Shown here one piece after another: positions 9,302 to 44,412 of a DNA stretch of 52,166 nt. Numbering within the stretch: position 1 is the stretch's first letter; every line of letters starts with the position of its first letter. The DNA is from a virus. Lineage: Duplodnaviria; Heunggongvirae; Uroviricota; Caudoviricetes. The stretch is from the IMG/VR virus record IMGVR_UViG_2844443253_000003. One strand, written 5' to 3'. The position numbers and the translations under genes were made by a program. The notes under the pieces were generated by a model. It did not search any database. It worked only from the letters and a program-made list of their open reading frames with translations, and was not told the origin of the DNA.

Positions 9302-9952
9302 TTATGGAAGGTTTGCTAGTTTTGCATCGACAACTACGCCGATGATTTTGCAGTTTCCGTTGATCTCGATCATCGGATATTGTGGGTTAAGTGGTTTTAG
9401 AAACTTCCTGCCTGCATCAATAACTAACTTCTTGAAAGTTGACTCGTTTTCTCCTTCGAGCTTTGCAACTACCAGTTTCCCGTTACGCGGCTCTACTTCA
9501 GGATCGACGAGTATTATCATTCCTTCAGGGATACTGAGACCGGCCGGAGCCGTCATTGAGTCTCCCTTCACGTCCAACCAAAACGAATCTTCTGAACAGT
9601 CTACGGTTGTATCGTACCAGTTATCTATTGCACGCTTATGATATGGTTCTACAGCTTCCATCCAGCATCCTGCGCTCACCCAGCTAATCAGAGGGTATGA
9701 CCCTCTTGGATCATGCCTACTGTGATAGGCAATGTTTGAAAGACTTTCCTCTCCTTTCATCAGATAGTCAGGGGAACACTTCAACGCATTAGCCAGGGCG
9801 AGAAGATTCTCTCCATTTGGCTCTGTCTCAGAGCGTTCCCACTGAGATATGGCAACATTAGACACGCCGACCATCTTTCCAAGTGCGGCCTGCCTGATCT
9901 TGAGTTCTTTTCTCCGAGCGCGAATGCGCTCTCCCATCAATTGAGTTTTCAT
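9302..9952 (-). CDS. c2: CI-type repressor, P22 C2-like (HTH plus LexA-like S24 autocleavage domain)
   Basis: 216 aa; sequence closely resembles P22 C2 as I recall it (MxTQLMGERIRARRK ... GNCKIIGVVVDAKLANLP). Confidence 0.9.
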   Translation of the reverse strand: MKTQLMGERIRARRKELKIRQAALGKMVGVSNVAISQWERSETEPNGENLLALANALKCSPDYLMKGEESLSNIAYHSRHDPRGSYPLISWVSAGCWMEAVEPYHKRAIDNWYDTTVDCSEDSFWLDVKGDSMTAPAGLSIPEGMIILVDPEVEPRNGKLVVAKLEGENESTFKKLVIDAGRKFLKPLNPQYPMIEINGNCKIIGVVVDAKLANLP

Positions 9953-13391: not shown

Positions 13392-13617
13392 TGAACGCAA
13401 TATTCACAAGCAATGCGTGGTGTGCAACCAGCACAAAAGCGGAAATCTCGTTCCGTATCGCGTCGAACTGATTAGCCGCATCGGGCAGGAAGCAGTAGAC
13501 GAAATCGAATCAAACCATAACCGCCATCGCTGGACTGTCGAAGAGTGCAGGGCCATCAAGGCGGAGTATCAGCAGAAACTCAAAGACCTGCGAAACAGCA
13601 GAAGTGAGGCCGCATGA
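13318..13617 (+). pseudogene. ninG: NinG C-terminal fragment (no N-terminal half, no ATG)
   Basis: [16 protein letters not shown]...[43 protein letters not shown]...NSRSEAA matches the C-terminus of lambda NinG as I recall it. Confidence 0.6.
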
Positions 13618-13660
13618 CGTTCTCAGTAAAAACCATTCCAGATCACAAGGGAGAAGGCGC

Positions 13661-14149
13661 ATGGGCATAAGAGAACTAAACCTCACCAAAGAACAGCACG
13701 AGTGGCTGAATGGCTGGCTTGAACTGTGGGGCGCATGGGTTTATTCAGGTCGTCTGGAAAAGCGCATGAGCAGCGTAATAGCTAAGTTCATGGAGAGCGT
13801 AGAGCCGGGAAGAGTTATGACAAGGCCAATGTGTAATGATGATGATGGAATGTTGATTTCTCAGGTCGTCGATTCCGTCATGTACATTGACAAGAAAGCC
13901 TTTGGCATCCTCCTCAGCTACTACGCCCACGGCTCTTCCAAGCACGCCATTGCATCTTACTATCATCGCGTCGCAAGACCTCGCAAGATGTTATGCCGGG
14001 GCGGCGGGCGCATTCAAAAACCATCGCTCGCAACCTGTCGACGGGAAGTTGACGAAATCCTCAATGCCTCGTTGTTTATGATTTACCCGGTTCTGGATAG
14101 TGCGTTTAAAAACCGGAAACGTGTAGAGAAAATTAAACATGTAGCATAG
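13661..14149 (+). CDS. Q: late-gene antiterminator Q (QuuD/Q21-like family), start at MGIRELNL
   Basis: motifs WGAW and RPMCNDDDGMLIS / ILLSYYAHG resemble the E. coli QuuD pattern; position before tRNAs and lysis genes. Confidence 0.6.
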   Translation: MGIRELNLTKEQHEWLNGWLELWGAWVYSGRLEKRMSSVIAKFMESVEPGRVMTRPMCNDDDGMLISQVVDSVMYIDKKAFGILLSYYAHGSSKHAIASYYHRVARPRKMLCRGGGRIQKPSLATCRREVDEILNASLFMIYPVLDSAFKNRKRVEKIKHVA

Positions 14150-14638: not shown

Positions 14639-14962
14639 ATGAAGATGCCAGAAAAACATGACCTGTTAGCCGCCATTCTCGCGGCAAAGGAACAAGGCAT
14701 CGGGGCAATCCTTGCGTTTGCAATGGCGTACCTTCGCGGCAGATATAATGGCGGTGCGTTTACAAAAACAGTAATCGACGCAACGATGTGCGCCATTATC
14801 GCCTGGTTCATTCGTGACCTTCTCGACTTCGCCGGACTAAGTAGCAATCTCGCTTATATAACGAGCGTGTTCATCGGCTACATCGGTACTGACTCGATTG
14901 GTTCGCTTATCAAACGCTTCGCTGCTAAAAAAGCCGGAGTAGAAGATGGTGGAAATCAATAA
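14639..14962 (+). CDS. S: holin (lambda S-like, dual-start MKM)
   Basis: 107 aa, apparently near-identical to lambda S as I recall it ([41 protein letters not shown]...). Confidence 0.9.
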
Positions 14963-15422
14963 TCAACGTAAGGCGTTCCTCGATATGCTGGCGTGGTCAG
15001 AGGGAACTGATAACGGACGTCAGAAAACCAGAAATCATGGTTATGACGTCATTGTTGGCGGAGAGCTATTCACTGATTACTCCGATCACCCTCGCAAACT
15101 TGTCACGCTAAACCCAAAACTCAAATCAACAGCAGCCGGACGTTACCAGCTTCTTTCCCGTTGGTGGGATGCCTACCGCAAGCAGCTTGGACTGAAAGAC
15201 TTCTCTCCGAAAAGCCAGGACGCTGTGGCACTGCAACAGATTAAAGAGCGTGGCGCTTTACCGATGATTGATCGCGGTGATATCCGTCAGGCTATCGACC
15301 GTTGCAGCAATATCTGGGCTTCACTGCCGGGCGCTGGTTATGGTCAGTTCGAGCATAAGGCTGACAGCCTGATTGCAAAATTCAAAGAGGCTGGCGGAAC
15401 GGTCAGAGAGATTGAGGTATGA
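14946..15422 (+). CDS. R: endolysin (lambda R-like lytic transglycosylase)
   Basis: 158 aa beginning [39 protein letters not shown]. Confidence 0.9.
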
Positions 15423-15856
15423 ACAGAGTAACCGCGATTATCTCCGCTCTGGTTATCTGCATCATCGTCTGCCTGTCATGGGCGGTTAATCATTACCGTG
15501 ATAACGCCATCACTTACAAAAAGCAGCGTGATAAGGCCGCATCCATTATTACTGACATGCAGAAGCGTCAACGTGATGTAGCTGAACTCGATGCCAGATA
15601 TACAAAGGAGCTTGCTGATGCTAACGCGACTATCGAAAGTCTTCGTGCTGATGTTTCTGCTGGTCGTAAGTGGCTGCACGTCGCCGCCACCTGTGCAAAG
15701 TCAACGACCGGAGCCAGCGGCATGGGCGATGGAGAAAGCCCAAGACTTACAGCAGATGCTGAACTCAATTATTACCGTCTCCGAAGCGGAATCGACAGGA
15801 TAACCGCGCAGGTTAACTACCTGCAGGAGTACATCAGGATGCAATGCCTTCGATGA
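15419..15856 (+). CDS. Rz: i-spanin Rz
   Basis: 145 aa with N-terminal TM segment [20 protein letters not shown]; follows endolysin. Confidence 0.85.
15618..15803 (+). CDS. Rz1: o-spanin Rz1 lipoprotein embedded in +1 frame of Rz
   Basis: embedded ORF with lipobox-like LLVVSGC and Pro-rich tail; start codon uncertain. Confidence 0.55.
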
Positions 15857-16200
15857 TAGCGATAATTTTACTCATCATACTTCACATCTGGCTCTGTAGA
15901 CAGGGTGGTGATCACTTCTGGAGTGAATCCAGATTAAACATCTCATTGCTGATGCTTGACGTTAAGCATATGGCGCGCGGTAAGGGGCTGCGTTGAGATA
16001 AGAGCCAGTCATTACAAATACCAGGATTTAGCCTCGCATTTGCGGGGCTTTTTTACATCTGCAGTAAACCGCGCATCGCAGCGCGTAACAATCCCGAGTC
16101 TTTCAGAAAGCTGAGCCTGAGAACTGCCGTATATGGTGGCGACCATCTCGGGGCGGCTTTTCTGTGCGAACAGGCTCATCTTTCTAAAAGGTAAGACGCT

Positions 16201-16722
16201 ATGAATATCGTTCCACTAAATTACAAAGGCGAACCTATCCGCTTCAATACTGATGGCTGGATTAATGCCACTGATATTGCAAAACGTTTCGGGAAGCGTC
16301 TGGATCACTGGTTGTCCAACGCTGAAACTCTCGAATACGTTAGAGCTCTGGATGAGGTTTATTCAGGTGAACCATCGAAAATTCTACATACCCGTGATTC
16401 CGGGTATGTAAAAACAAGCAAGGCACGAAAGGACAGGGGCGGCGGAACATGGCTGCATCCAAAGTTATCAGTTGCCTTTGCAAGATGGTGCGATCCGAAA
16501 TTCTCCGTATGGTGCGACCTGCACATTGATAGTCTGCTTCGCGGTGAACTGACTGAGCAGCAGAAATATGAGCAAGCATGTCGCATTCGCGATGACCGGA
16601 AATCGAAAGCCAGCAATGGGGCAAGAGAGATGGCTCGCTGGCGATGGGATAAGCCGGTTATTGAAGCAAATGTCGAGTACTGGCGCGAGCAACTGCAGTT
16701 GACTCTCGATATTGCGTGCTGA
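16201..16722 (+). CDS. KilA-N domain protein (antirepressor-like N-terminal DNA-binding domain)
   Basis: N-terminus NTDGWINATDIAKRFGKRLDHWL typical of KilA-N/Bro-N; sits between lysis and terminase. Confidence 0.55.
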   Translation: MNIVPLNYKGEPIRFNTDGWINATDIAKRFGKRLDHWLSNAETLEYVRALDEVYSGEPSKILHTRDSGYVKTSKARKDRGGGTWLHPKLSVAFARWCDPKFSVWCDLHIDSLLRGELTEQQKYEQACRIRDDRKSKASNGAREMARWRWDKPVIEANVEYWREQLQLTLDIAC

Positions 16723-29929: not shown

Positions 29930-30106
29930 CGTTTAACAGCCTGCCGGACGGGCTGTCTTACCTTCTCAATCCGGTTGACGCCGGGTTAATTCCTTATACA
30001 GCACTTAAAGATGGCTCTGTCGATTTGTACGACATTGCTCTCTTGAATGACCATCTGGCGGTAAAAGCGGATAACCAGCGGCGCATTGAGAAATGGAGAG
30101 AGGATA

Positions 30107-32095
30107 ATGAACGCTGAAACTATTAAAGATTTCCTCGTCTCGCTTGGCTTCAGTGTGGATGATGCAGGAGCGAAAAAGTTCGGTTCTGTCCTCGCCGGTA
30201 CAACTGCAAATGTCATCAAAATGGGACTGGCCGTTGAAGGAGCTGCGCTGTCCGTGGTGGCCTTCACGGCTAAGATCGCCTCCGGCCTGGATAATCTTTA
30301 CTGGGCGTCACAGCGCACCGGCGCGACAGTCCAGGGAATTCAGTCTATTGGCTATGCGGTTTCGCAGGTTGGCGGCAGCGTGGACGCTGCGCGCGGGTCA
30401 CTGGAGAGCCTTGCCCGTTTTATCCGTAATAACCCCGGGGCTGAGGGATTTCTGAATCGTCTGGGGGTACAGACACGGGATGCCAGCGGTAACATGCGTG
30501 ACATGGCCGCTATTTTTACAGGTGTAGGACAGAAGCTCAGCGGCATGCCGTATTACCGGGCTAACCAGTATGCGCAGATGCTGGGCATTGACGAAAATAC
30601 CCTTATGGCGATGCGCCGGGGTGTGGGTGGTTTCTCCGGACAGTACAGCGCAATGGTGAAAGCTATCGGCTTCAATGCTGACGAGGCGGCCAGAAGCTCC
30701 AACAAATTTATGACCTCCCTGCGTGAGTTTAGCGCGATGGCAGGCATGGCCCGTGACAAAATCGGCTCTAATCTTGCGGGTGGGCTTGCGGGTTCGCTGG
30801 ACACCCTGCGCCGCCATATCCTGGACAACTTCCCTCGTATCGAGCAGACCCTGACGAAAGCCATAAAAGGCATTCTGGCGCTCGGGGATATTATCGGGCG
30901 GCTGTTCTTCAGACTGATTGAAGGAACATCAGGCCTCATCACCTGGTGGCAATCGCTGGATAAGCAAACGCGGGAGTTGATCTCGCTGTTTGGTGCACTG
31001 ACGATTGCGCTGCGCATTCTGAACAGTACGTTCTGGATGTCGCCGATTGGCCTCATTACCGCGCTGGCGGCGGGGATTGCCCTTCTGTGGGAGGACTATC
31101 AGACCTGGAAGGAAGGCGGCGACAGCCTGATTGACTGGGGCAAGTGGAAGCCGGAGGTCGATGCCGCGCTGAAGATGGTTCGTGACCTGAAAGGGGCTGT
31201 TAATGAACTGGCGAAAGCGCTGGCGAAACTGCTCAATATTGACCCCAAATCATGGTCCCTGAAGTGGGATTTCAGCAACTTCATCGACCAGATGGGCGAA
31301 TTCAGCAAAATGCTGAACATGATCGCCGACCTCCTCAACGCTATCAAAGATGGCCGCTGGGCTGATGCAGTCAGCATCAGCAAACAGATACTTAATCAGG
31401 GCAGCGAAAATCCGTCAGCGATGCCGATGGTTACAGACAGCGCTAACAGTACTGCCGACTGGATTAAAGAGCGCTGGGGATTCGATCCTCGCAGCGTGGG
31501 CCGGACGGTACGCGGCTGGTTTGGTGATGATGAGCCGGAACAATATGCACAGGCTACGAAACGAGGAGAACGGAATAACAATCCGGGAAACCTTAATTTT
31601 GCTGGTCAGGCAGGGGCTTCTCTTGAACGCCCGGGCGGGAGATTTGCCAGATTTGAAACTGCTTTTGATGGATTACGGGCTCTTGCTCGTCAGTTAATGT
31701 TGTACGCCGGACGTGGAATAAACAGCGTGGAGAAAATTATCTCTACCTGGGCACCTGCGTCTGATAATAACAACACAACTGCGTATATCAGGGCTGTATC
31801 GCAACGACTGGGAGTGGATCCCCGGGCTGCCCTGAATATGAGCGATCCGCAAACCATGTCAGCATTGATGAGCAGCATTATCCAGCATGAAAATGGAAGA
31901 AATATCTATTCTCGAGAGCTGATTAATAAGGCTGCCGTGGCGGGAATTAGTGGCAAAATGACAGAGGTTAACCAGCAAAATACTTACCACATTTACGGTG
32001 GCGGAGATCCGCACGCTGTCGGTAATGAGGTTGCACGTCGGCAACAGTCTGCAAATGCTCAGGTCATGCGAAGTAATCAGGTGAGGGTGGGTTAG
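30107..32095 (+). CDS. tail tape measure protein (start at MNAETIKDF)
   Basis: 663 aa, helical/Ala-Gly-rich; RBS GGAGAGAGG. Confidence 0.7.
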   Translation: MNAETIKDFLVSLGFSVDDAGAKKFGSVLAGTTANVIKMGLAVEGAALSVVAFTAKIASGLDNLYWASQRTGATVQGIQSIGYAVSQVGGSVDAARGSLESLARFIRNNPGAEGFLNRLGVQTRDASGNMRDMAAIFTGVGQKLSGMPYYRANQYAQMLGIDENTLMAMRRGVGGFSGQYSAMVKAIGFNADEAARSSNKFMTSLREFSAMAGMARDKIGSNLAGGLAGSLDTLRRHILDNFPRIEQTLTKAIKGILALGDIIGRLFFRLIEGTSGLITWWQSLDKQTRELISLFGALTIALRILNSTFWMSPIGLITALAAGIALLWEDYQTWKEGGDSLIDWGKWKPEVDAALKMVRDLKGAVNELAKALAKLLNIDPKSWSLKWDFSNFIDQMGEFSKMLNMIADLLNAIKDGRWADAVSISKQILNQGSENPSAMPMVTDSANSTADWIKERWGFDPRSVGRTVRGWFGDDEPEQYAQATKRGERNNNPGNLNFAGQAGASLERPGGRFARFETAFDGLRALARQLMLYAGRGINSVEKIISTWAPASDNNNTTAYIRAVSQRLGVDPRAALNMSDPQTMSALMSSIIQHENGRNIYSRELINKAAVAGISGKMTEVNQQNTYHIYGGGDPHAVGNEVARRQQSANAQVMRSNQVRVG

Positions 32096-32682
32096 TGGAT
32101 ATTCTCTCTACACTTTTTCATCAGCAGAGCAGAAAAATAGGAATGATTGTTCCCAGTGTTGTTATTTCAGAGAAGCATACAGATATGCTTGAAATAACAG
32201 AGCATCCGGTAGAGGTTGGGGCCGCTGTCGCTGATCATGCCTATAAAAAACCGTCAGAAGTGGTGATGGAGGTTGGTTTCGCCGGTGGCGGCGCATTGCT
32301 GGATTTTGCCAGTAATCTGACGGCTACCAGCCTGCTCGGCCTGAGTCCTCAGCAGACGTATCAGGAGCTACTGGATCTGCAGGAAAGCCGTATCCCCTTC
32401 GATGTGGTAACCGGTAAACGGCTGTACAGCAACATGTTGATCCGGGCGCTGGAAGTGACGACGGACAAGACAACCGAAAACGTCCTGTCCGCCGTCCTCA
32501 CCCTGAGGGAGGTCATTATCTCCCGGACACAGCAGATTACCGTCGCGGATAAAACCAACATGAAGGAAGGGGCCAGCACGTCGGCGGTACAGAACAGCGG
32601 CAACAAAACCACAAAACCTCCAGATACTTCACTGCTGAAAAGCATCACGGGTAACGTGGCGTCATTACTGGGGGGCGGCTAA
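32095..32682 (+). CDS. putative tail/baseplate protein
   Basis: 195-aa ORF coupled to tape measure stop. Confidence 0.4.
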   Translation: MDILSTLFHQQSRKIGMIVPSVVISEKHTDMLEITEHPVEVGAAVADHAYKKPSEVVMEVGFAGGGALLDFASNLTATSLLGLSPQQTYQELLDLQESRIPFDVVTGKRLYSNMLIRALEVTTDKTTENVLSAVLTLREVIISRTQQITVADKTNMKEGASTSAVQNSGNKTTKPPDTSLLKSITGNVASLLGGG

Positions 32683-32984
32683 TGACAATTCAGGAAATTC
32701 CGCTGACAGCGGACAACCAGCAGTTCAGCATCGTCCTAGGTGGTGTCACCTGGCGGATTAGCATCATATGGCGCGATCTGTACTGGATTATGGACCTGCA
32801 GAACGACAGAGGGGAGCCGGTAATCTCCGGTATTCCTCTCGTCACTGGTGCTGACCTGCTGGCGCAGTACGCCTGTATGGGGCTTGGTTTTAAGATGGTG
32901 GTGGTCTGCGATGACAATACACAGGATTATCCCACGAAAACTGACCTGGGCGGCCGCAGTCATTTACTGGTATCAACGGAGTAA
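32682..32984 (+). CDS. putative tail protein
   Basis: 100-aa ORF. Confidence 0.4.
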   Translation: MTIQEIPLTADNQQFSIVLGGVTWRISIIWRDLYWIMDLQNDRGEPVISGIPLVTGADLLAQYACMGLGFKMVVVCDDNTQDYPTKTDLGGRSHLLVSTE

Positions 32985-32986
32985 GC

Positions 32987-34054
32987 ATGTCACAGAACTG
33001 GATGAGACATTTCGAGCTGCAGCTTGTGGACGGGAACGGTCAGGGAATTGAGCTAAGTGATTTCAAAGTCACCTTTACGATCGACTGGTTCAACATCAGC
33101 AGCGCGTCCCGGGTAGGGACTATCAAAATTTATAACCTCTCGGCAGATACTGTGAACCGAATTACCGGGCAGGAGTTTTCGAAAGTGCGTCTGATTGCGG
33201 GTTACGACGGTATCGCGCCGGAGGTGTCGGCAAGCGACGTCGGGACAGTGCGGGAAGTTGACGCGGCGGACGTGGGCCAGAGTGATGGTCGCAACTACGG
33301 ACTGATTTTCAGCGGTGAAATTCGCTACTCGGTCACAGGAAAAGACAGTCCGGTTGATTCCTACGTCCTGATTCAGGCAGCAGATACTGATCTGGCTTTT
33401 GCCACCAGTATAACCTCACAGACGCTGGCTGCCGGTTACACGGTCGCTGATGTGAACCGTGCGCTGATGAAAGACTTCGAAGCCAAAGGTGCGACCGAAG
33501 GCCTGACGCCTGAAATGCCTGCTACTGTATTCCCCCGGGGGCGGGTACTCTTTGGCATGACGCGGCATCTAATGGATAACGTAGCCGGGCAATGTGGCGC
33601 AACATGGCAATTCGTGGACGGTCAGCGCCAGATGGTGGCGAATAACGAATATGTTCATGAAGCGATTGTGCTCAACAGCGCTACCGGGCTTATTGGCATG
33701 CCGCAGCAGACTATCGGTAACGGCGTAAACGTCCGCGCGCTTATTAATCCGAACATCCGGGTTAACGGACTTATTCAGCTGGATCAGGCTTCCGTGTATC
33801 GTACCGCCTTGTCGAACAACGATATTGCGATGGCTGGTGGTCAGATCACCGACCAGAACACGGATGGAAATATCACGCTAAGCGGCACCACATCGCAGCC
33901 TGCCAGCATCGCAACGGATGGCGTTTATATTGTGCGCGGGATTATGTACACTGGCGACACAAGGGGCCAGGCGTGGTACATGGATATGATGTGCGAAGCG
34001 CGTGGCGCGGCGGATCTTCGTTCTGCGTCGTCTTTACAGCGTGAGGTAGGATAG
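32987..34054 (+). CDS. putative baseplate hub/tail protein
   Basis: 355-aa ORF preceding the accessory insertion. Confidence 0.5.
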   Translation: MSQNWMRHFELQLVDGNGQGIELSDFKVTFTIDWFNISSASRVGTIKIYNLSADTVNRITGQEFSKVRLIAGYDGIAPEVSASDVGTVREVDAADVGQSDGRNYGLIFSGEIRYSVTGKDSPVDSYVLIQAADTDLAFATSITSQTLAAGYTVADVNRALMKDFEAKGATEGLTPEMPATVFPRGRVLFGMTRHLMDNVAGQCGATWQFVDGQRQMVANNEYVHEAIVLNSATGLIGMPQQTIGNGVNVRALINPNIRVNGLIQLDQASVYRTALSNNDIAMAGGQITDQNTDGNITLSGTTSQPASIATDGVYIVRGIMYTGDTRGQAWYMDMMCEARGAADLRSASSLQREVG

Positions 34055-34407
34055 TGAAAAAGTGGATTGTTATCGGACTCTGTTTCCTTACGGGGTTAGC
34101 ATTTGCTGCGAATCCTGGCGGTATCACGCTTCAGTGTGGTGGCTACAAATTAGAGTTGATTCCTGATTCATTGTTCAGGATGAATGGTGAGACAGTTACC
34201 TCCCAGAAAATCAAAACGCTCGGCAACGGTAATGGAATGAAGGCGGATATGGGTCTTATGCCTGCCAAAGACGGTAACAACTACGGCTTTGAATACATTC
34301 GTCGCCCTGGTACCGAAACGCGATTCCTGAATGTCCAGCTTCTGCAGAACAGCATGGATGCGCCGAAAATCATCGGATCTTTCCCTTGTAAAAAAGTGGC
34401 TGGGTGA
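34054..34407 (+). CDS. small secreted protein with signal peptide (moron candidate)
   Basis: GTG start overlapping upstream stop; N-terminus MKKWIVIGLCFLTGLAFA then ANPGG; not a recognisable tail protein. Confidence 0.5.
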   Translation: MKKWIVIGLCFLTGLAFAANPGGITLQCGGYKLELIPDSLFRMNGETVTSQKIKTLGNGNGMKADMGLMPAKDGNNYGFEYIRRPGTETRFLNVQLLQNSMDAPKIIGSFPCKKVAG

Positions 34408-34556
34408 AGGTAACCTGAAATTCGTAACGCCTGAAAAACAACAAAATGTGCTCTAAAAACTATTGTTTTTTGAGACGAGCGATTACACTGCACTGACTTT
34501 TTGATGGTGGATTGCCATCGATATGCTACTTCATTAAAGCCAGGAATAACTAAAAC

Positions 34557-35288
34557 ATGAGTTTAGCGCAGCCAAAATCAGGAGAACTGTTAGATCTTCT
34601 GACTCCTTCATTAACTAAGGGTGAAAACCTTCTGAGTGAGTTTGAAATCCATCGAATCATTCGTGAAGCGAAGAAACTACCTGAACGTTATCAGGGGCTA
34701 TCAATTGAAGGCTTAGCTAAGCTTGTTCTTGGTGAAATAGATGAAGGATGTTCACTCTGTGAGCGGGGGTTGAGAATAGCGCCTAACGATCCAGTTTCTT
34801 TTTGTAACTATACGATTGCGCTGCGTAACTTAGGTTTGCATGCTCGCCAGTATGTGATGATTCAGAAAGCATCTGATTCACTTAATCCAACGATATTGGC
34901 TGAGGTTGCTACAATTTCTGCATACTGGGTTGATATCGATTTGCTTGAAAAGGTGATGCCGATGCTAACTGCAATGGAAGTACCGCGCCCTGAAGATATG
35001 GGCAAATGGTATGACACGCTCAATTATCTGCATACCCAAAAAGATCATGCTCAGGAGCTAAAAACTATTGGGCGGCTCATGATGAACGTTGCAGAAAAGT
35101 ACCGCGCTCGTCTTGCTGGCGCTCATGCTTTTTATGTAATGTCAGAACTTGATACGCTGTTCGTTGAAGTCAAAACAGACGATCCAGTGCTTCTTTCGCA
35201 GATGAATAATGCCTTGGCTGATGAGATTATTATTGCGGGGCTTGCGGATTCAGAATGCGTCGGATGCTTTGAAGCCGGGGAACTCTAA
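34557..35288 (+). CDS. hypothetical helical protein, accessory cassette gene A
   Basis: 243 aa, about 40% GC versus about 52% in flanking tail genes; no recognisable structural-protein features. Confidence 0.55.
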   Translation: MSLAQPKSGELLDLLTPSLTKGENLLSEFEIHRIIREAKKLPERYQGLSIEGLAKLVLGEIDEGCSLCERGLRIAPNDPVSFCNYTIALRNLGLHARQYVMIQKASDSLNPTILAEVATISAYWVDIDLLEKVMPMLTAMEVPRPEDMGKWYDTLNYLHTQKDHAQELKTIGRLMMNVAEKYRARLAGAHAFYVMSELDTLFVEVKTDDPVLLSQMNNALADEIIIAGLADSECVGCFEAGEL

Positions 35289-35716
35289 TGTCGGTTGAGC
35301 ATACCTGTTTTCTTGAATTGGCTAAGCATTCCCTGGCTCTAAACGGTGAGATGTGGACGAGAAATGCTATTAGCCGAGCATACTATGGTATGTACCATTC
35401 CGCCTTACGGATCACCAACAATCTGGTACCGACCGCTACACAAGATGGTGAAAAACTAAAAGGTGGAGTTCACATGCGAGTCTATACGGCCTTTTGTAGT
35501 GGTGAGGCAGCTGCACTTAACGATGTTGATGTTAACGCAGTAAAGAAAATCGGCGTTAAACTGAAAATGACGCATGCCCAACGTGTTAATTCTGATTACA
35601 AGCTTGAGCGGAAAATCAACCGGATTACCGCGAGAAGTGTAATTCTGGATGCGGAAGAGGTCGATGCAATCGTTAATCAATTACTGAAGATTGGTGATGA
35701 CTCGTTAACTGCATAA
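35288..35716 (+). CDS. hypothetical protein, accessory cassette gene B (possible HEPN-like fold)
   Basis: 142 aa; start overlaps stop of gene A (TAATG); motif AISRAYYGMYHSALR. Confidence 0.5.
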   Translation: MSVEHTCFLELAKHSLALNGEMWTRNAISRAYYGMYHSALRITNNLVPTATQDGEKLKGGVHMRVYTAFCSGEAAALNDVDVNAVKKIGVKLKMTHAQRVNSDYKLERKINRITARSVILDAEEVDAIVNQLLKIGDDSLTA

Positions 35717-35737
35717 GCTGAAATTTCTCAAAATTCA

Positions 35738-35761
35738 AACCCGCCACTTGGCGGGTTTTTT
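35738..35761 (+). terminator. intrinsic terminator closing the accessory cassette
   Basis: hairpin AACCCGCC-ACTT-GGCGGGTT followed by TTTTTGC. Confidence 0.7.
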
Positions 35762-35780
35762 GCTTTCTGGAGCCTACTAA

Positions 35781-36533
35781 ATGGCAGTATCTGACCAGAC
35801 CCGCAGCGGCGACCTTGCCGAAACATTTAAATCTGAACGGGAAACAACAAAGAACCAGATCCGTGTCGCCTTGCCTGGCATTATTCAGTCATTCGATCCT
35901 GATGCGGTGACGGCAGTTGTGCAGCCTGCTATCCGTTCGGTTGAAAAGGATAATGACGGCAACCGCATTACCAAAAATTACCCATTGCTGGTGGATGTGC
36001 CAGTGGTATTCCCGCGCGGCGGAGGATGTACGCTAACGTTCCCAGTTAAAGCCGGTGATGAATGTTTGGTGATTTTTGCCGATCGTTGTATTGATTTCTG
36101 GTGGCAGAGTGGCGGGATACAGGAGTCGGTCGATGACAGAATGCATGATTTATCGGATGCGTTTTGTATTGTCGGTCCCCAGTCGCAGGCAAGGAAGATT
36201 AGCGGTATTAATACCAGTGCCACACAGTTGCGTAGTGATGACGGCAGCACCTATTTTGAGCTTAATCCTGATACCAGGAAAATTAAAATTGTCGCTCCGG
36301 GGGGCCTTGATGTGGTTGCCCCTATGGCTGATTTTTCTGAGAAAGTAACCATTCATGGCCTGTTAACCTGGATGGGAGGCATGGTGGGGTCTGTTGTTTC
36401 TGGTGTGGCTTCAAAAATTACTGGTGCTGTTGAGTTTTTGGGTAGCGTGAAGGCTAACGGCAAGCCAATCGATGATACGCACACTCATGGTGGTGTTCAG
36501 CGCGGTGGAAGCAATACCGACGGAGTAAACTGA
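35781..36533 (+). CDS. baseplate spike/assembly protein V-like
   Basis: 250 aa; position and size match a Mu/P2-type gpV. Confidence 0.55.
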   Translation: MAVSDQTRSGDLAETFKSERETTKNQIRVALPGIIQSFDPDAVTAVVQPAIRSVEKDNDGNRITKNYPLLVDVPVVFPRGGGCTLTFPVKAGDECLVIFADRCIDFWWQSGGIQESVDDRMHDLSDAFCIVGPQSQARKISGINTSATQLRSDDGSTYFELNPDTRKIKIVAPGGLDVVAPMADFSEKVTIHGLLTWMGGMVGSVVSGVASKITGAVEFLGSVKANGKPIDDTHTHGGVQRGGSNTDGVN

Positions 36534-36886
36534 TGCGATACAGACGTGAAGACGCCGATGGCGATTACACCTTTGGCAGCGGTGATGACACCTGGCTGAT
36601 TAACTCACCGGAGGCCGTGGCGCAGGCGGTAAAAACGCGATTCGAATTGTGGTATGGGCAATGGTTTCTCGACACCACCGAGGGGACTCCGTGGATCCAG
36701 TCCGTACTCGGTAAGCAGAAGCCGGAAACCTACAACCTGGCGATCCGTAAGCGCATCCTCGAAACGCAGGGCGTTAAATCAATCCTCTCTTTCAATACGA
36801 CGGTGGATACCACGACCCGACGTGTCATGTTTTCCGCTGAAATCGACACTCTTTATGGAATAACGACTGTTACATCGGAGGCGTAA
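36533..36886 (+). CDS. baseplate protein W-like
   Basis: 117 aa between V-like and J-like genes. Confidence 0.5.
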   Translation: MRYRREDADGDYTFGSGDDTWLINSPEAVAQAVKTRFELWYGQWFLDTTEGTPWIQSVLGKQKPETYNLAIRKRILETQGVKSILSFNTTVDTTTRRVMFSAEIDTLYGITTVTSEA

Positions 36887-38085
36887 TGGCTCTGAACCTT
36901 GATTCTCTCGGTTTATCTGCAAAGGTAACCGCGGAGGGGATCAGTGCGCCTGATTATCAGACGATACTCAGCACCCTGATTAGCTATTTTCAGCAGATTT
37001 ATGGCAGTGATGCCTACCTCGAACCGGACAGCAAAGACGGCCAGATGGTGGCTCTGATGGCGCTGGCGATTCATGATGCCAATAATATGGCGATAACTGT
37101 CTACAACTGTTTTTCACCGGCAACCGGCTATGGGGCTGCACTGACCAGTAACGTGAAAATAAATGGTATTTCACGTAAAGGCGCGACGAACTCTACGGTT
37201 GATTTGCTTCTTACAGGAACTGCCGGAACAACCATCATTAATGGCAGCGTGAAAGACAGTAATAATGTGATATGGCGTTTGCCTGCTTCAGTGGTGGTCG
37301 GCGTGGATGGTACAGTGATGGTGACCGCAACATGTTCCGTCAGTGGTGCAGTGGCGGCGCTGGCTGGAACTATCACTGAAATTAATACGCCAACCCGTGG
37401 CTGGGTTTCGGTAACCAATCCTGCTGCGGCTACTGTGGGCACTCCGGCAGAAACTGATGCGGAGTTACGTATCCGACAGTCGCAAAGTGTTGCGTTGCCA
37501 TCAATAACCCCATTTGAAGCACTGGATGGTGCTGTTTCTAATGTTACCGGTGTAACCCGCCACAAACTCTATGAAAACGATAATGGTTCGGAGGACGGTA
37601 ACGGGTTACCGCCACACTCTGTTGCTGTAATTGTGGATGGCGGTGATGTGACGGATATTGCTCAGGCTATCAGAGGGAATAAAGGCCAGGGGACAGCCAC
37701 TCACGGTACAACATCCGTTACGGTTCCGGATAAATACGGCAATCCCCATGTAATCAAATTCTCGCGTTCCAGTGATGTACCTGTTTATGCCCGGATTAAA
37801 TTAAAAGTTTTTACGGGTTATACCTCACAGATAGGGCAGCAGATCCAGCAGGCTATTTCCGACTATATCAATAGTCTGATGATTGGTGATTCGGTCCTTT
37901 TAAGTCGCATTTACTCACCGGCGAATCTTGGCGTGGTGAGTGGCGGGAATGCACGCTATTACGATATTCAGGAACTGACGATTGGGAAATCCCCGGGGGC
38001 TTTGTCGTCATCAAACATTGATATCAGATACAACGAATCTGCGTCCTGTACCCCGGAAAATATCGTTATAACGGTGGAGTCATGA
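36886..38085 (+). CDS. baseplate J-like protein
   Basis: 399 aa; canonical position. Confidence 0.65.
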   Translation: MALNLDSLGLSAKVTAEGISAPDYQTILSTLISYFQQIYGSDAYLEPDSKDGQMVALMALAIHDANNMAITVYNCFSPATGYGAALTSNVKINGISRKGATNSTVDLLLTGTAGTTIINGSVKDSNNVIWRLPASVVVGVDGTVMVTATCSVSGAVAALAGTITEINTPTRGWVSVTNPAAATVGTPAETDAELRIRQSQSVALPSITPFEALDGAVSNVTGVTRHKLYENDNGSEDGNGLPPHSVAVIVDGGDVTDIAQAIRGNKGQGTATHGTTSVTVPDKYGNPHVIKFSRSSDVPVYARIKLKVFTGYTSQIGQQIQQAISDYINSLMIGDSVLLSRIYSPANLGVVSGGNARYYDIQELTIGKSPGALSSSNIDIRYNESASCTPENIVITVES

Positions 38086-39993: not shown

Positions 39994-41247
39994 TTAAGGC
40001 TGTTTTTTTATTAATGTCATCGTCCATCCTGCAGGGTTGAACTTGAAAGAATACGATTCTCCTGGTGCTAAGCTTTCAAATTTTTTAACTTGCTCTTTCC
40101 ACCCGTAATCTGGGAGTGGGGTAAGATTGAAAAAATATAAACATGAGATTAACGATGTTGTATATAACATCCATGGTAGGAATTTAAAGTGCAAGTGGGA
40201 AATATAGTTTAAGAAGTAAACCAATACAGAGTACCATATAATTGTTGGTATGACAGAATATCTTCCTCCGCCATGAATTAATAATGGCCATTGCTCACTT
40301 GTAGATGAAAGCATTGGTTTTGCTAGTGAAAACGTTAATGTTAGTATTGCGAAAACTATTGCCGAGCGCATGGGGTAATTGGAAACAATAAATGTAAAAA
40401 TAGTGATGGAAAGACAAATTATTGTAATTGCAATGCAAATTGAATCATGATTCCATAAAGGTGATAAAAAGTCACCATTAGCCCATAAACCCAGAAAAAC
40501 CTTTGTTGTTAATATTTTGCAAAGTGTTGCAAAATTAGCTCCAAGAACCATATCAACTCTGGTCTCAGAGGATGTCATAATAATAGAAATAAATTGAATC
40601 AAACAAATGGCAATGAAAACGTATTCGTGAGTGGTTATTTTTTTTGTAGATAAGCGTTTTTGTATAAGTATATTTATCCCTACCATTGGAGCCATGAATA
40701 CTATAAATGGACCACTTAGTCCACATATGATTATCGCTATATAATCGTGTGCTTTTTGATAATTATTTGTAGGCTTTGGAGCTAACATAACAAGAAGTAA
40801 ATATAGTGATAAATACCAATGATCATTAGTAACATTGGCGTGCACTTCTGATACTTCAGGCATTATTATAATAAACAAAGCAGTAAATATTCTTGGTGTT
40901 ATGTTTACGTAACTAAATCTTCCAGAGAGTATGAAAGATACAAGCAATGCCCTAACAATAATTGCGGAGATGTTAAAAATTAAAGGGGCATACATTAAAT
41001 TAAAATTTAATGATATGGAGGCAATAAGTTTTGATATGGTTTGATAATATCCATTTTGAGGGAATATCATTGATGTGAATATGCCATTATTGTATGCCAT
41101 AGCATACCATACATGACCATCTTCTGCCCAAAACTGCGGTGTTCTGATTATATCAGGGCGGCGCAAATACATCAAAATAACCGCAATGAAAAATACAGCA
41201 ATTAAGAAAAATAGTTTTTTTACATATGATGTTTTAAGGCTTTTCAT
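39994..41247 (-). CDS. serotype-specific O-antigen glucosyltransferase Gtr(type), polytopic membrane protein
   Basis: 417 aa, hydrophobic, AT-rich, third gene of gtrA-gtrB-gtr operon next to attR; exact type (GtrV/GtrX/other) not determinable here. Confidence 0.8.
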
Positions 41248-42167
41248 TTTTGTTTCTCATTTTTGATGATGTATTTGGGACGATGTTTGCTTTCAATATA
41301 GATTCTGCCTATATATTCACCGAGAACACCAATCCCGATCAGCTGCACTCCACCCAAGAAAAGTATTGATACAAGCAGGGAGGGATACCCGCGTACTGGG
41401 TTACCAAAGACAAGGGTGTCTATAATCATCCATGCACCATATAAAAATGAAATGCTTGCAACAAACAAGCCTATATAAGTCCATACGCGAAGAGGAAAGG
41501 TTGAAAAACTTGTGATACCTTCCAGTGCCAGATTCCATAATTTCCAGCCATTAAATTTTGAGATGCCAGCAACGCGCTCTGCGCGTACATATTCAACGAC
41601 ATCTGTCTGACCACCCACCCAGCTCAGTATGCCTTTCATGAAAAGATTGCGCTCAGGCAACAGTTTAATGTTCTCCACAACCTCACGAGACATGAGTCGA
41701 AAATCTCCGACATTTTCCTCGATCTTTGGGGTGCTTATTTTGTTGTGTAACTTATAGAACCACTCAGCTGTCTTACGTTTCAGTCGTCCATCAGTTGAGC
41801 GGTCTGAACGTTTAGCAAGCACCATGTCAGCACCTGCCTGCCACTTTTCAATAAGATGAGGGATAACCTCAATTGGGTCTTGCAGGTCGACATCAATAGG
41901 AATTACAGCATCGCCGCTTGCATGGTCTAACCCTGCAAATAAGGCTGGTTCTTTACCAAAGTTGCGTGTAAATGACAGCGGAACAACTAGCGGGTCTGAA
42001 ACAGCCAGCGCGTTAATAATTGACTCCGTGGCATCTTTACTTCCGTCATTTATGAATACAATTTCTACTTCATATGGCTTCAACTCTTGGAATTCACGTA
42101 CCGTTTTATAGAAAACAGGTATCGCTTCTTCTTCATTGAAGACAGGAACGACAAGAGATATTTTCAT
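41244..42167 (-). CDS. gtrB: bactoprenol glucosyltransferase GtrB
   Basis: 307 aa GT-2 family N-terminus [17 protein letters not shown]...INDGSKD; C-terminal TM helices. Confidence 0.9.
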
Positions 42168-42526
42168 TTCGCATCCCTAAAGACAATGAACTTTGAATAG
42201 ACGAAACCGCACACCAGGCTGATGGCGGAGAAGGTGATAAGAGTGACTATTGGAGGAAGTGAGCATTTATCAGCAGCCCAACCAACAATCACACTCAATA
42301 TTCCCATGAATCCCACGTATAACATGTAGCGCATCGCTGTAGTCGATGCTTTGAATGTGAATCTTGCATTCGCGAAGAAGCTAAAGCTCACAGCCACTAC
42401 GAAACCTGTGAAGTTTGCCAGGGCCTGACTGGTATGTGCGGCATAGATACATACACCAAAAACCACCCAGTGTATAAGTGTGTTCAGCACACCTATAGAT
42501 GTGTACTTTACAAATAACTTTAACAT
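42164..42526 (-). CDS. gtrA: GtrA flippase-like membrane protein
   Basis: 120 aa, four predicted TM segments, [23 protein letters not shown]. Confidence 0.9.
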
Positions 42527-43146: not shown

Positions 43147-44412
43147 TGAGGTGTACTGGCAATAGCGGACACTACCATTTGTTCTTTTTTTAAGCAGCCA
43201 TCTGATGATATTTTTCCCTGAAGGCTGCCGGGGAGATATTCCCCAGACGAGAGTGACGACGCTGACGATTGTAGAAAATCTCAATGTATTCCCGTATTAC
43301 TGAGATGGCTTCATCCCGGTTATTAAAACGATAGTGGCTCAGGCTCTCATTTTTCAGCGTTCCCCAGAAGCTTTCCATCGGAGCGTTGTCGTAACAGTTA
43401 CCTTTACGCGACATTGATGTTTTCAGACCAAACTGCTCCTGTATGACCCGGTAATCGTATGCGCAGTACTGTGAACCTCGATCAGAGTGGTGGATTAGCC
43501 CGGCAGGTGGGCGCTGGCTCCTGAGCGCCATAAACAGGGCTTTACCTGTCAGCTCTTTTGTCATGCGCTCTCCCATGGCGTAGCCGACAATTTCGCACGT
43601 ATAAACATCTTTGATGCCAGCGAGGTACAACCATCCCTCCTGTGTGGCAACATACGTCAGGTCCGCCACCCAGACCTGATTTGGTGCTGTAGGAGCGAAC
43701 GTCTGGTTCAGCAGATTTGGCGCAACTGGCAGATTGTGGTTCGGGTTCGTAGTCGCTCTGAACTTGCGTTTCTGCTTACAGCGTAGCCTCAGCTCCTTAC
43801 GAAGACGTGCCAGTCGGTCACGACCAACGATGATGCCATTCTCTGCCAGCTCCGTCTGGAGCCGCCGGGTTCCATATGTTTCGCGAGTGCGGATATGTGC
43901 CACCTTAATCTCCGGTTTTAGCCGCTCATCACTTTGTTTTCTGTCTGAGGGTTCATGCTGTACCCAGTTGTAATAACCGCTCCTGGATACACCAAATACC
44001 TGACACATCGCTTCAATGGGAAATTGTTGTCGCCATTGTTCGATTAACGCGTATTTTTCAGCGACTCCTGTGCAAAATACGCTGTTGCTTTTTTTTAATA
44101 TATCTCGCTCAAGGCGAGCTTCATTTAACGCCTTACGCAGTTGCAGAATTTCAGATTCCAGTTCAGCCAGCGTGCGGGAACCAGGAGTACCGAGCCCTTT
44201 TCTGGCGGCGGTAACCCATTGTCCTAAAGTGCCTTCAGGAAGGAATAATCGGGAAGCGTCTTCACTGATCGAAAGTTGATTTTCAAGAACCGTTCTGACA
44301 GCTTCGGCTTTGAACTCTTTAGAGTAACGTTGGGTTTTTCTGCTCATTATTAGCTCCTTCTGATGCCATTCTATTTCAGGAAGGAGTGTCCGTTAAACTC
44401 AGGCTACCTCAG
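43147..44412 (-). mobile_element. IS600 (IS3 family) copy 1, no flanking target duplication
   Basis: ends TGAGGTAGCCTGAGTTTAACGGACACTCC / GGTAGTGTCCGCTATTGCCAGTACACCTCA shared with copies at 47312 and 51306; flanking triplets differ (CCC vs GAC). Confidence 0.85.
43190..44347 (-). CDS. IS600 transposase as a contiguous OrfAB fusion (385 aa)
   Basis: A-run of 8 at the slippery site (vs 7 in copy 2) puts orfA and orfB in one frame. Confidence 0.8.
   Translation of the reverse strand: MSRKTQRYSKEFKAEAVRTVLENQLSISEDASRLFLPEGTLGQWVTAARKGLGTPGSRTLAELESEILQLRKALNEARLERDILKKSNSVFCTGVAEKYALIEQWRQQFPIEAMCQVFGVSRSGYYNWVQHEPSDRKQSDERLKPEIKVAHIRTRETYGTRRLQTELAENGIIVGRDRLARLRKELRLRCKQKRKFRATTNPNHNLPVAPNLLNQTFAPTAPNQVWVADLTYVATQEGWLYLAGIKDVYTCEIVGYAMGERMTKELTGKALFMALRSQRPPAGLIHHSDRGSQYCAYDYRVIQEQFGLKTSMSRKGNCYDNAPMESFWGTLKNESLSHYRFNNRDEAISVIREYIEIFYNRQRRHSRLGNISPAAFREKYHQMAA

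Follow-up and report, generated by a model that had tools for sequence, protein, structure and literature searches.

A conserved gene for a small, very probably exported protein between the baseplate hub and spike genes of a lambdoid prophage and its relatives

In the 52,166-nucleotide viral stretch analysed here (the window), the 117-residue open reading frame at 34054–34407 on the plus strand is best explained as an accessory gene of the phage backbone whose product is exported and is no part of the virion, a reading to which we give a probability of roughly 0.6. The frame opens with GTG (34054–34056) and closes with TGA (34405–34407), and the first G of its start codon is the last base of the TAG stop (34052–34054) of the upstream baseplate hub gene, so that the two genes have one base in common; this GTG overlapping the upstream stop had been pointed out in an earlier sequence-only reading of the same DNA, and a renewed read of the sequence, with a Shine-Dalgarno motif in place, bore it out. 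The hub-to-ORF gap is −8 to +4 nt in 23 of 24 loci of relatives, and translation of the ORF is coupled to the hub gene. The features discussed below are the following:

14639–15856: lysis cassette
14946–15422: endolysin
32987–34054, plus strand: baseplate hub gene, with the ORF coupled to it in translation
33917–34006, plus strand: hub codons 311–340, putative left homology arm for allele exchange, with raised synonymous identity
34043–34046, plus strand: Shine-Dalgarno motif GAGG, 7 nt 5′ of the GTG and within the last hub codons (sequence read)
34054–34407, plus strand: ORF of the predicted exported protein, 117 aa, member of PHROG 3443
34054–34107, plus strand: predicted signal peptide, residues 1–18, MKKWIVIGLCFLTGLAFA, with a predicted signal peptidase I cut after AFA (heuristic n/h/c analysis, family conservation, low-pLDDT N-terminal helix)
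34108–34404, plus strand: mature domain, 99 aa, 10.7 kDa, pI 9.3, an up-and-down beta-barrel in the AlphaFold prediction
34135–34137, plus strand: Cys28, first strand of the predicted barrel
34387–34389, plus strand: Cys112, last strand of the predicted barrel
34408–35736, plus strand: variable cargo slot, separate from the exported-protein gene (homology break points, GC)
34557–35288, plus strand: cassette gene 1, 243 aa, in the cargo slot
35288–35716, plus strand: cassette gene 2, 142 aa, weakly HEPN-like, in the cargo slot
35737–35768, plus strand: intrinsic terminator (hairpin 35737–35758) with a 9-bp stem (6 G-C pairs), 4-nt loop and T-rich tail
35781–36533, plus strand: spike gene (PF18352 N-terminal domain and Apex motif), where the backbone restarts

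The ORF is a real gene; its match to PHROG 3443 (E 1.4e-46; ORF residues 8–116 on profile positions 5–114 of 115), its 389 homologous protein clusters and the purifying selection acting on it mean that it is no chance reading frame. The clusters come from Enterobacterales prophages, were retrieved together with the PHROG by a homology search that the sequence-only reading had proposed, and are all named hypothetical or ‘Secreted protein’, the latter being used by UniProt for proteins in the same 90% cluster or in neighbouring ones. Purifying selection was shown by pN/pS, which is 0.75 in the signal peptide and drops to 0.21 for residues 73–113, with synonymous divergence in the family saturated (pS ~0.8). 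The ORF is a full member of PHROG 3443, a family that has neither an annotated function nor a Pfam domain nor an NCBIfam model and that is also matched by distant Klebsiella, Mixta and lipoprotein-fusion forms. Searches of Pfam (E up to 0.01), NCBIfam, PADLOC and PDB sequences with the protein and the family profile gave no informative match; in particular, none of the known exclusion or defence families (e.g., T4 Imm) covered by Pfam, NCBIfam and PADLOC was matched, no known exclusion protein was detected as a homolog, and publications on the gene, on its homologs or on the locus were searched for without success, as were virion proteomics of any relative. An exhaustive profile search added few distant members, and its matches to the giant repeat proteins P0122, P0159, P0162 and P0163 were discarded as they look compositional. 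The lipoprotein sub-branch, which has an extra N-terminal domain that is almost confined to such fusions and carries no annotation, sits at the same locus. Homologs also occur away from phages: those on the Mixta chromosome lie between yciY and yciI, and a further one is on a plasmid-like contig.

The classic Sec signal peptide that the earlier reading had described held up under the heuristic n/h/c criteria on which all our signal-peptide calls are based, both in the window protein and, depending on the criterion, in 112–114 of 114 full-length homologs. The N-terminus reads (M)KKWIVIGLCFLTGLAFA/ANPGG..., the slash marking the predicted cleavage; the n-region has two lysines (KK) and no acidic residue, residues 4–19 are uncharged with a 10-residue Kyte-Doolittle maximum of 2.46, and A-F-A occupies positions −3/−1. 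An n-region devoid of acidic residues and a stretch of 10 or more uncharged residues are found in all 114 homologs and an AXA-type cleavage site in 112; a lipobox ([LVI][ASTVI][GAS]C at the signal-peptide end) is present in one homolog and in the window protein is missing. Exactly two cysteines occur beyond residue 20 in 109 of the 114 proteins, and an alignment of 45 sequences shows C28 and C112 without exception. Because a conserved, cleavable-looking Sec signal peptide is combined with this cysteine pair, the product is very probably exported to the bacterial periplasm, and we infer that it is absent from virions. The AlphaFold model places residues 1–20 in a low-confidence helix separate from a confident barrel of seven DSSP strands plus short bridges, the strands being 5–11 residues long; as Cys28 and Cys112 fall in the first and last strands, we infer a disulfide between them. 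Within the family, variation affects the signal peptide and strands one and two; conservation is strong over the C-terminal two thirds. No close structural relative of the predicted barrel was found: Foldseek returned no significant match, and in BFVD a ‘lipoprotein’ of a Serratia phage was matched weakly (TM 0.48, E 0.03).

All relatives examined have the gene at this position, also those at an identity of ~30% and those from another bacterial order. Among 134 loci the hub gene is directly upstream in 118 and the spike gene downstream in 120, and the order hub, exported barrel, cargo, terminator, spike is kept from E. coli to Photorhabdus and Carnimonas; the syntenic loci include Klebsiella phages (30% identity), the lipoprotein-fusion form and Carnimonas. 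DNA homology with 10 relatives reaches 34394–34407 and restarts at 35722–35781, mostly at 35737, i.e., the ORF lies within the homologous backbone, which is interrupted precisely at the stop codon of the ORF, with only 34408–35736 being variable. In the window this cargo slot holds a two-gene cassette and an AT-rich spacer, and the same cassette was also seen beside other alleles of the exported-protein gene. The GC content of the ORF is 47.2%, compared to 54.4% for the hub, 49.7% for the spike, 49.4% for the sheath and 48.9% for gpJ, the outliers proper being the cassette (44%) and the spacer (36.9%). By these comparisons the gene appears to be a fixed, ancient accessory gene of the tail module and no recent add-on.

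The right boundary of the cargo slot is the terminator just 5′ of the spike RBS. The terminator recurs in 38 of 38 relatives, its stem having 21 different sequences and compensatory changes. It closes the hub-to-spike interval and is common to the gene and to whatever cargo lies between. The phage is lambdoid and has a Q antiterminator; terminator and Q together support a moron-style insulation, as expected for genes transcribed outside the late programme. A scan of 33500–36000 yielded no sigma-70-like promoter scoring at least 9/12, the best relaxed candidates reaching 8/12, although a consensus scan of this kind can miss weak or non-sigma-70 promoters. Since the start overlaps the hub stop there is no room for a promoter, and as no convincing one lies upstream, the lysogen expression that classic exclusion requires is unsupported; judging by its tight coupling to the hub, the gene would be expressed late and at a low level. 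An embedded promoter had been considered on account of the synonymous-site conservation in hub codons 311–340, which is better explained as a recombination arm.

At these codons synonymous identity is 0.84–0.89 vs. ~0.65 elsewhere; the final ~12 codons of the hub gene, which follow the arm, co-vary with the allele of the exported-protein gene. Exported proteins only 55–72% identical were found beside hubs 97–98% identical, and the alleles shuffle between prophages with hubs 97–99% identical. One locus (L016), the only stacked array among the 134, carries four paralogs with every later copy preceded by a hub 3′ fragment, the hub arm being duplicated there as a 261-nt repeat; this array reads as the footprint of serial allele replacement through the conserved homology arm. 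The stacking of copies behind duplicated 3′ fragments is shared with displaced-module arrays such as the orphan CT-immunity pairs of CDI/Rhs systems and the tail-fibre tip plus chaperone cassettes; however, the variable hub tail here is only 12–16 residues long and is no toxin domain, and there is a single array. Comparison of the alleles does not appear to indicate a target for the exported protein: allele type did not track spike, Dit or plug identity among the tail proteins compared, nor did it covary with the type of muralytic domain in the tape measure, both domain types occurring with every allele type, and for this reason the idea of a specific partner there was dropped. Hub-tail type was also tabulated against allele type at 62 loci, but as the two are adjacent and the clustering is crude, linkage cannot be separated from co-evolution in this table.

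In the model that we favour, the gene closes the tube-to-hub block of a myovirus tail module and is translated by coupling to the hub, and its product would be exported by Sec and probably cleaved by signal peptidase I to give a soluble beta-barrel of ~10.7 kDa that resides in the periplasm and is held together by a single disulfide. Passage through the terminator, from the downstream cargo slot into the spike gene, should be reserved for Q-modified late transcription, and allele swaps would occur by recombination between the conserved hub 3′ stretch and the gene’s own conserved 3′ part. As to what such a protein does, we tentatively suggest, at odds clearly below even, that it interferes in the periplasm with envelope penetration or DNA entry by kin phages, i.e., superinfection exclusion, acting either at a late stage of infection or, at a low level, in the lysogen. 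A bolder and more doubtful version is that the family is a new, widespread class of exclusion protein tied to the tail module, a secreted barrel that recognises the ejection apparatus of kin phages and blocks penetration allele-specifically, with the variable C-terminal hub tail travelling with each allele as the part that might be recognised; allele-specific blocking would explain both the shuffling of alleles between otherwise identical tails and the four stacked copies, which would resemble orphan immunity genes.

Several envelope proteins of phages offer comparisons for this suggestion. The prototype of a moron-encoded superinfection-exclusion protein is HK97 gp15, a YebO-like protein of the inner membrane. 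Its gene is missing from close relatives and has a promoter and a terminator of its own, and its exclusion depends on the tail region of the incoming phage (PMC3594210), a type of mechanism like the one suggested here. Both it and the protein described here are small and envelope-targeted, are encoded within a lambdoid tail operon and have homologs outside prophages; ours, in contrast, is a predicted soluble periplasmic barrel, is coupled to the hub and is present in all relatives, and no sequence similarity between the two was found. The lipoprotein exclusion factors T5 Llp, phi80/N15 Cor and TP-J34 Ltp are likewise envelope proteins encoded beside tail genes, and one sub-branch of the present family is a lipoprotein; the window protein is not, and no homology to these was detected.

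The sequence-only reading had instead proposed a lysogenic-conversion or superinfection-exclusion moron like lambda bor/lom, possibly inserted together with the two-gene cassette. A moron is defined as extra DNA that is absent from related phages and has its own promoter and terminator, deviant GC and expression from the prophage (PMC3594210, after Juhala et al. 2000); among these hallmarks we found a terminator, and neither absence from relatives nor an own promoter. That the gene is a recent conversion or exclusion moron of this kind, co-inserted with the cassette and expressed in the lysogen from its own promoter, is very unlikely: the export-type product, the terminator at the end of the slot in a phage with Q antitermination and a GC content below that of the hub all fit, but the gene is in the same place in all relatives, homology breaks after its stop and not before its start, the cassette combines with other alleles, and the start overlaps the hub stop with no promoter of 9/12 or better. 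The export signals of the proposal stand, and the terminator and Q agree with a moron; recent acquisition does not stand, since a presence/absence check found the gene in all relatives with backbone homology spanning it, an own promoter is unsupported, and co-insertion is refuted by the position of the homology break and by the pairing of the cassette with different alleles. The likeness to bor/lom fails as well, as the protein has neither the lipobox of the lipoprotein Bor nor a Bor, Lom or Ail Pfam match, and with 99 mature residues and short strands it is too small for an outer-membrane barrel such as the 8-stranded Ail/Lom proteins (~150–180 aa); the C-termini of the family (e.g., KKVAG, KKVSD) never end in F, Y or W. 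The same reading had held that the gene should not be a conserved virion component of related phages: conserved it is, but nothing points to the virion.

A virion or tail-assembly component, with the N-terminal hydrophobic helix being no export signal, would agree with the strictly conserved, translationally coupled position between hub and spike and with a divergence similar to that of structural proteins; it is nevertheless most improbable, as the n/h/AXA architecture is kept while its sequence varies freely (pN/pS 0.75), the invariant cysteine pair fits an oxidising compartment, and lipoprotein-fusion variants and non-phage homologs exist. In addition, the solved virion model of phage E217 omits an unrelated gene between hub gp41 and tip gp43; its product, gp42, was considered as a counterpart and rejected, being unrelated and having no signal peptide. 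A more plausible but still unlikely alternative is a secreted helper of the late phase without a role in the lysogen, which would tune lysis timing or protect progeny, e.g., by preventing futile ejection into debris or by blocking late superinfection. The conserved hub coupling, the failure to find an own promoter and the persistence of the gene deep within the tail module also at loci with cargo turnover are in keeping with such a helper, but the lysis cassette is far off, chromosomal and plasmid-borne homologs occur without any phage, and lysis would lose a soluble periplasmic protein. Quite unlikely, too, is a periplasmic inhibitor of peptidoglycan hydrolases (like T4 Sp, MliC/PliC or Brucella PhiA) directed at the C-terminal muralytic domain of an incoming kin tape measure or at the phage’s own endolysin. 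There is no family match to these proteins, with no MliC, PliC or Ivy match in Pfam, T4 Sp has a different, helical fold, and no allele type is restricted to one of the two muralytic domain types; besides the lack of a significant Foldseek match, avidins and other unrelated barrels outscored the inhibitors in structure comparison, and the fold resemblance found for the model is generic.

E. coli, Shigella, Salmonella (Typhi included), Klebsiella, Photorhabdus and other bacteria commonly carry prophages of the kind described here, and the gene is one of the few non-structural genes that all of these prophages keep, with no name, domain or assigned function. If its product blocks phage entry, it would represent a new fold and a new genetic layout among exclusion proteins, namely a hub-coupled gene with exchangeable alleles and an adjoining cargo slot, and would bear on predicting the host range of therapeutic phages in lysogens; if the function is mundane, an ordinary conserved hypothetical protein remains. 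The locus comparison also defines a precise cargo hotspot, extending from the stop codon of the gene to the conserved terminator, in which TA- and defence-like genes are exchanged.

The ORF directly downstream of the baseplate hub gene (34054–34407, + strand) starts with a GTG at 34054–34056, 7 nt downstream of a GAGG, and ends with a TGA at 34405–34407, giving a 117-residue product. As the sequence-only reading had stated, its start overlaps the upstream stop: the G of 34054 is both the last base of the hub TAG (34052–34054) and the first of the GTG. The product begins (M)KKWIVIGLCFLTGLAFA/ANPGG, and the classic signal peptide also claimed for it held up when we scored the classical features directly, by heuristics, in the window protein and 114 full-length homologs. 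In the window protein the n-region has two lysines and no acidic residue, residues 4–19 form an uncharged run (best 10-residue Kyte-Doolittle window 2.46), and the −3/−1 motif is A-F-A. All 114 homologs likewise have an n-region free of acidic residues and an uncharged stretch of 10 residues or more; an AXA-type site precedes the first mature cysteine in 112, and a lipobox is present in only one. Members of the same or neighbouring clusters, one of them from S. Typhi, carry the UniProt name 'Secreted protein'. The prediction that the product is exported is well supported.

The ORF matches PHROG 3443 (E-value 1.4e-46), a family of unknown function that is already catalogued and uncharacterised, and its homologs form 389 clusters at 90% identity; these are all from Enterobacterales, and none has a Pfam domain or carries an informative name. 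Synonymous differences among 28 diverse copies have reached saturation (pS 0.71–0.80), and pN/pS declines from 0.75 in the signal peptide through 0.55 (residues 19–44) and 0.37 (45–72) to 0.21 (73–113). The protein is thus subject to purifying selection, strongest in the C-terminal two thirds, and the ORF is a real gene. The deposited starts of SEN34_20 and of the ST340-VIM1phi10.1 gene are internal ATGs (77–78 residues) that lose the signal peptide; the full ORFs, of 113 residues each, include it, that of SEN34 starting with TTG at L003:4158 (contig L003, 4158–4499) and that of ST340-VIM1phi10.1 with an ATG at L008:4980 that overlaps the hub stop (contig L008, 4980–5321). The giant repeat proteins P0122, P0159, P0162 and P0163 also match the family profile, via many short stretches (for example DGSG..QFLNVTV and LLQASDGNLYG), and were judged compositional or repeat artefacts rather than homologs.

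An AlphaFold2 model built from a 45-sequence alignment (≤80% identity) has a pLDDT of 82.6, with residues 1–20 as a separate helix (~55) and residues 24–115 as an all-beta domain (~90) with predicted strands at 24–28, 31–35, 50–56, 61–68, 76–83, 90–97 and 105–115. The first and last strands close an up-and-down barrel and contain C28 and C112, respectively, both invariant in the alignment, a placement that suggests a C28–C112 disulfide; exactly two cysteines occur beyond residue 20 in 109 of the 114 full-length homologs.

The gene lies in the tail region of a lambdoid prophage with a contractile tail. Among sequenced phages, the prophage is closest to Escherichia phages vB_EcoM-689R2, -606R2, -611R5 and -683R1, Yersinia phage YP3 and Salmonella phage SEN34 (genus Brunovirus).

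Features of the prophage
205–1368, − strand, integrase
9302–9952, − strand, CI-like repressor
13604–14149, Q antiterminator
14639–15856, holin, endolysin and Rz
30086–32095, tape measure protein (TMP), after sheath, tube and chaperone genes and before genes for a Dit-like protein and a Pam3-gp18-like plug
32987–34054, baseplate hub
34054–34407, + strand, exported-protein gene
34557–35716, cassette of a 243-aa gene and then a 142-aa gene, the latter with a weak HEPN_IX match
35737–35758, intrinsic terminator, AAACCCGCC-ACTT-GGCGGGTTT then TTTGCTTTC (T tract to 35768)
35781–36533, spike, followed by sheath initiator, Baseplate_J, DUF2612 wedge, fibre and fibre-assembly protein
39994–42526 and 43190–44347, − strand, gtrA (120 aa), gtrB (GT2, 307 aa) and a 417-aa gene, at the end of the tail region

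A homolog of the exported-protein gene lies directly downstream of the hub in every relative examined, and the cargo that follows varies: a protein of 170 residues in 689R2, of 266 in YP3 and of 138 in SEN34; YafO and an unknown protein in strain 98201; DUF2335 in BR1220; DUF4282 in DETEC-P1056; and no annotated gene in E. coli IAI1. Pairwise blastn of 32001–37000 against ten relatives gave a first block covering the hub and the ORF that ends at 34394–34407 and a second that begins at 35722–35781, mostly at 35737, which places the variable segment at 34408–35736. The same cassette occurs in near-identical copies in Pseudocitrobacter (L018) and Citrobacter braakii (L026), where it adjoins a different allele of the exported-protein gene (58–61% identical). 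The suggestion that the ORF and the cassette arrived as one insertion is refuted by this pairing with other alleles and by the homology break after the ORF stop. Composition agrees with the ORF as backbone and the cassette as cargo: the GC content of the ORF (47.2%) is slightly under that of spike, sheath and gpJ (49–50%; hub 54.4%), the real outliers being the cassette (44%) and the spacer at 34408–34556 (36.9%). The slot is a toxin-antitoxin (TA)- or defence-type hotspot. It holds distant homologs of the two-gene cargo in Yersinia phage YP3, in Carnimonas (L054) and in a phage contig that is Serratia-like (L045). In other relatives it contains YafO, DUF2335, DUF4282, a T5orf172 protein, or another protein that has an RNNLFH motif and looks HEPN-like on inspection, without a profile match.

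The order of hub, exported barrel, cargo and spike is kept in Klebsiella phages ST340-VIM1phi10.1 and ST16-OXA48phi5.2 (copy ~30% identical) and in Photorhabdus, Yersinia, Pantoea, Rosenbergiella and others. It also holds in Carnimonas, from another bacterial order, and in a branch whose family member is a ~290-residue lipoprotein with the barrel as its C-terminal domain. Of 134 loci that contain a family member, 118 have the hub C-terminus immediately upstream and 120 have the spike downstream; between the exported-protein stop and the spike lie 26 to 2359 nt. In 23 of 24 loci the gap between hub stop and exported-protein start measures −8 to +4 nt, and translational coupling to the hub is thus an ancestral trait.

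The mature N-terminal third, comprising strands one and two and the loop after them, falls into at least five allele types, for example ITLQCGGYKLELIPDS (window), TITMQCGNFRMDAIPDS, FTVKCGGYTMVANQGE, AIQCGNYTMTGDG and DLQCGGYRLHAADNG, and the DGNNYGFEY...FLNVQLLQNSMDAPKIIGSFPCKK segment is nearly invariant in the 45-sequence alignment. Hubs 97–98% identical to that of the window are followed by alleles only 55–72% identical to its own, and the last ~12 hub codons co-vary with the downstream allele. Just ahead of these codons, we read hub codons 311–340 (33917–34006), where synonymous identity is 0.84–0.89 versus ~0.65 (20 relatives), as a putative left recombination arm. The strongest evidence for allele exchange comes from Pseudescherichia vulneris (L016, NZ_BBMZ01000043.1, 600–2900), the only array among the 134 loci. 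There, four paralogs with a ~625-nt period stand in tandem between hub and spike, three intact and one without the C-terminal cysteine; upstream of each of copies 2–4 lies a 261-nt piece of the hub 3′ end, duplicated (70–96% identical) and with a different short tail of 12–16 residues. The array resembles the displaced orphan modules of CDI/Rhs loci, or tail-fibre tip cassettes, and is the footprint of serial allele replacement, suggesting that different alleles are worth keeping.

Inside the late tail operon, 22 nt upstream of the spike ATG and immediately upstream of the spike RBS, the canonical intrinsic terminator at 35737–35758 has a hairpin and T tract at the equivalent position in 38 of 38 relatives, with 21 different stem sequences that include the compensatory forms CCTGC/GCAGG, GCCGC/GCGGC, CCCAC/GTGGG and GGTCGC/GCGGCC. 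Homology with relatives resumes only 44 nt upstream of the spike ATG; the interval from terminator to spike has no room for a conserved promoter, and the spike must therefore be transcribed by (Q-dependent) read-through. Since the phage encodes Q, late transcription should ignore the terminator; other transcription from the hub, the exported-protein ORF or the cargo would stop there. Such insulation is typical of morons (as defined in PMC3594210). For the exported-protein ORF we found no promoter site of at least 9/12 in 33500–36000, against 3.8 expected by chance, and the best candidates of a relaxed search reached only 8/12. The comparison of the gene to a moron like lambda bor or lom finds partial support in spirit, as regards an envelope-targeted, terminator-insulated accessory gene, but breaks down on most of the defining tests, given the promoter search and a homolog in every relative. 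The late region contains just one other strong intrinsic terminator on the + strand, at 16030–16049, just past the lysis cassette and upstream of a KilA-N gene (16201–16722).

Some homologs stand outside phages. A stand-alone homolog with signal peptide and both cysteines lies on the Mixta chromosome between yciY and yciI, near cls and without phage genes nearby (L049 6001–6357, L052 5001–5357; the two copies 74% identical; PHROG 3443, E-value 1e-26), and looks like a domesticated copy; another shares a plasmid-like contig with genes for Rep3 and a NikA-like protein. These non-phage homologs, the export signals and the cysteine pair together argue against a virion or assembly role. The literature yielded no virion proteomics for any relative. 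The model of the solved E217 virion does not include gp42, encoded between hub gp41 and tip gp43; gp42 is unrelated to the exported protein and lacks a signal peptide.

We envisage a periplasmic protein, produced together with the tail genes and perhaps at a low level at other times, that has accompanied the tail module across bacterial orders, diversifies at one end of its barrel, can be stacked and occasionally becomes domesticated. The best-fitting known kind is tentatively a superinfection-exclusion factor that acts on the tail of the incoming phage (probability roughly 0.3), for which HK97 gp15 is a precedent: its gene lies in a tail operon, and the specificity of its exclusion maps to the tail region (PMC3594210). 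The main alternatives are a late-phase helper, which we consider improbable, and a hydrolase inhibitor, more doubtful still. The inhibitor idea was made attractive by the TMP of the window, which ends in a muralytic domain: residues 491–623 (31556–31954) match endolysin 7q47 (5e-13) and Gp29 (9vvp, 1.8e-19). Pfam does not detect the window's version of this module, in place of which about half of the relatives have an SLT lytic transglycosylase domain. However, covariation with TMP domain type was not found, every allele type occurring with both, nor does allele type track the identity of spike, Dit or plug; no partner is indicated. Foldseek returned nothing significant for the small barrel of the model; in a structure comparison, avidins and other unrelated barrels came above periplasmic inhibitor or immunity proteins, namely the T6SS immunity protein BtaiB (7.3), Brucella PhiA (7.2) and PliC/MliC (5.6–6.5), with small outer-membrane barrels at 6.5–7.1. 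An outer-membrane barrel is unlikely because the mature protein has 99 residues, strands of 5–11 residues and no C-terminal aromatic residue. Returning to exclusion, the genetic layout, hub-coupled with exchangeable alleles and then a defined cargo slot, is a variant that has no described counterpart among known exclusion or conversion genes.

The gtr cluster suggests O-antigen modification by the prophage; its 417-aa product has no Pfam match, and an IS3-family transposase comes after that gene. The TMP ORF is listed with a TTG start at 30086; since the alignment with homologs begins only at residue 8 (MNAETIKDF), translation probably starts from the ATG at 30107.
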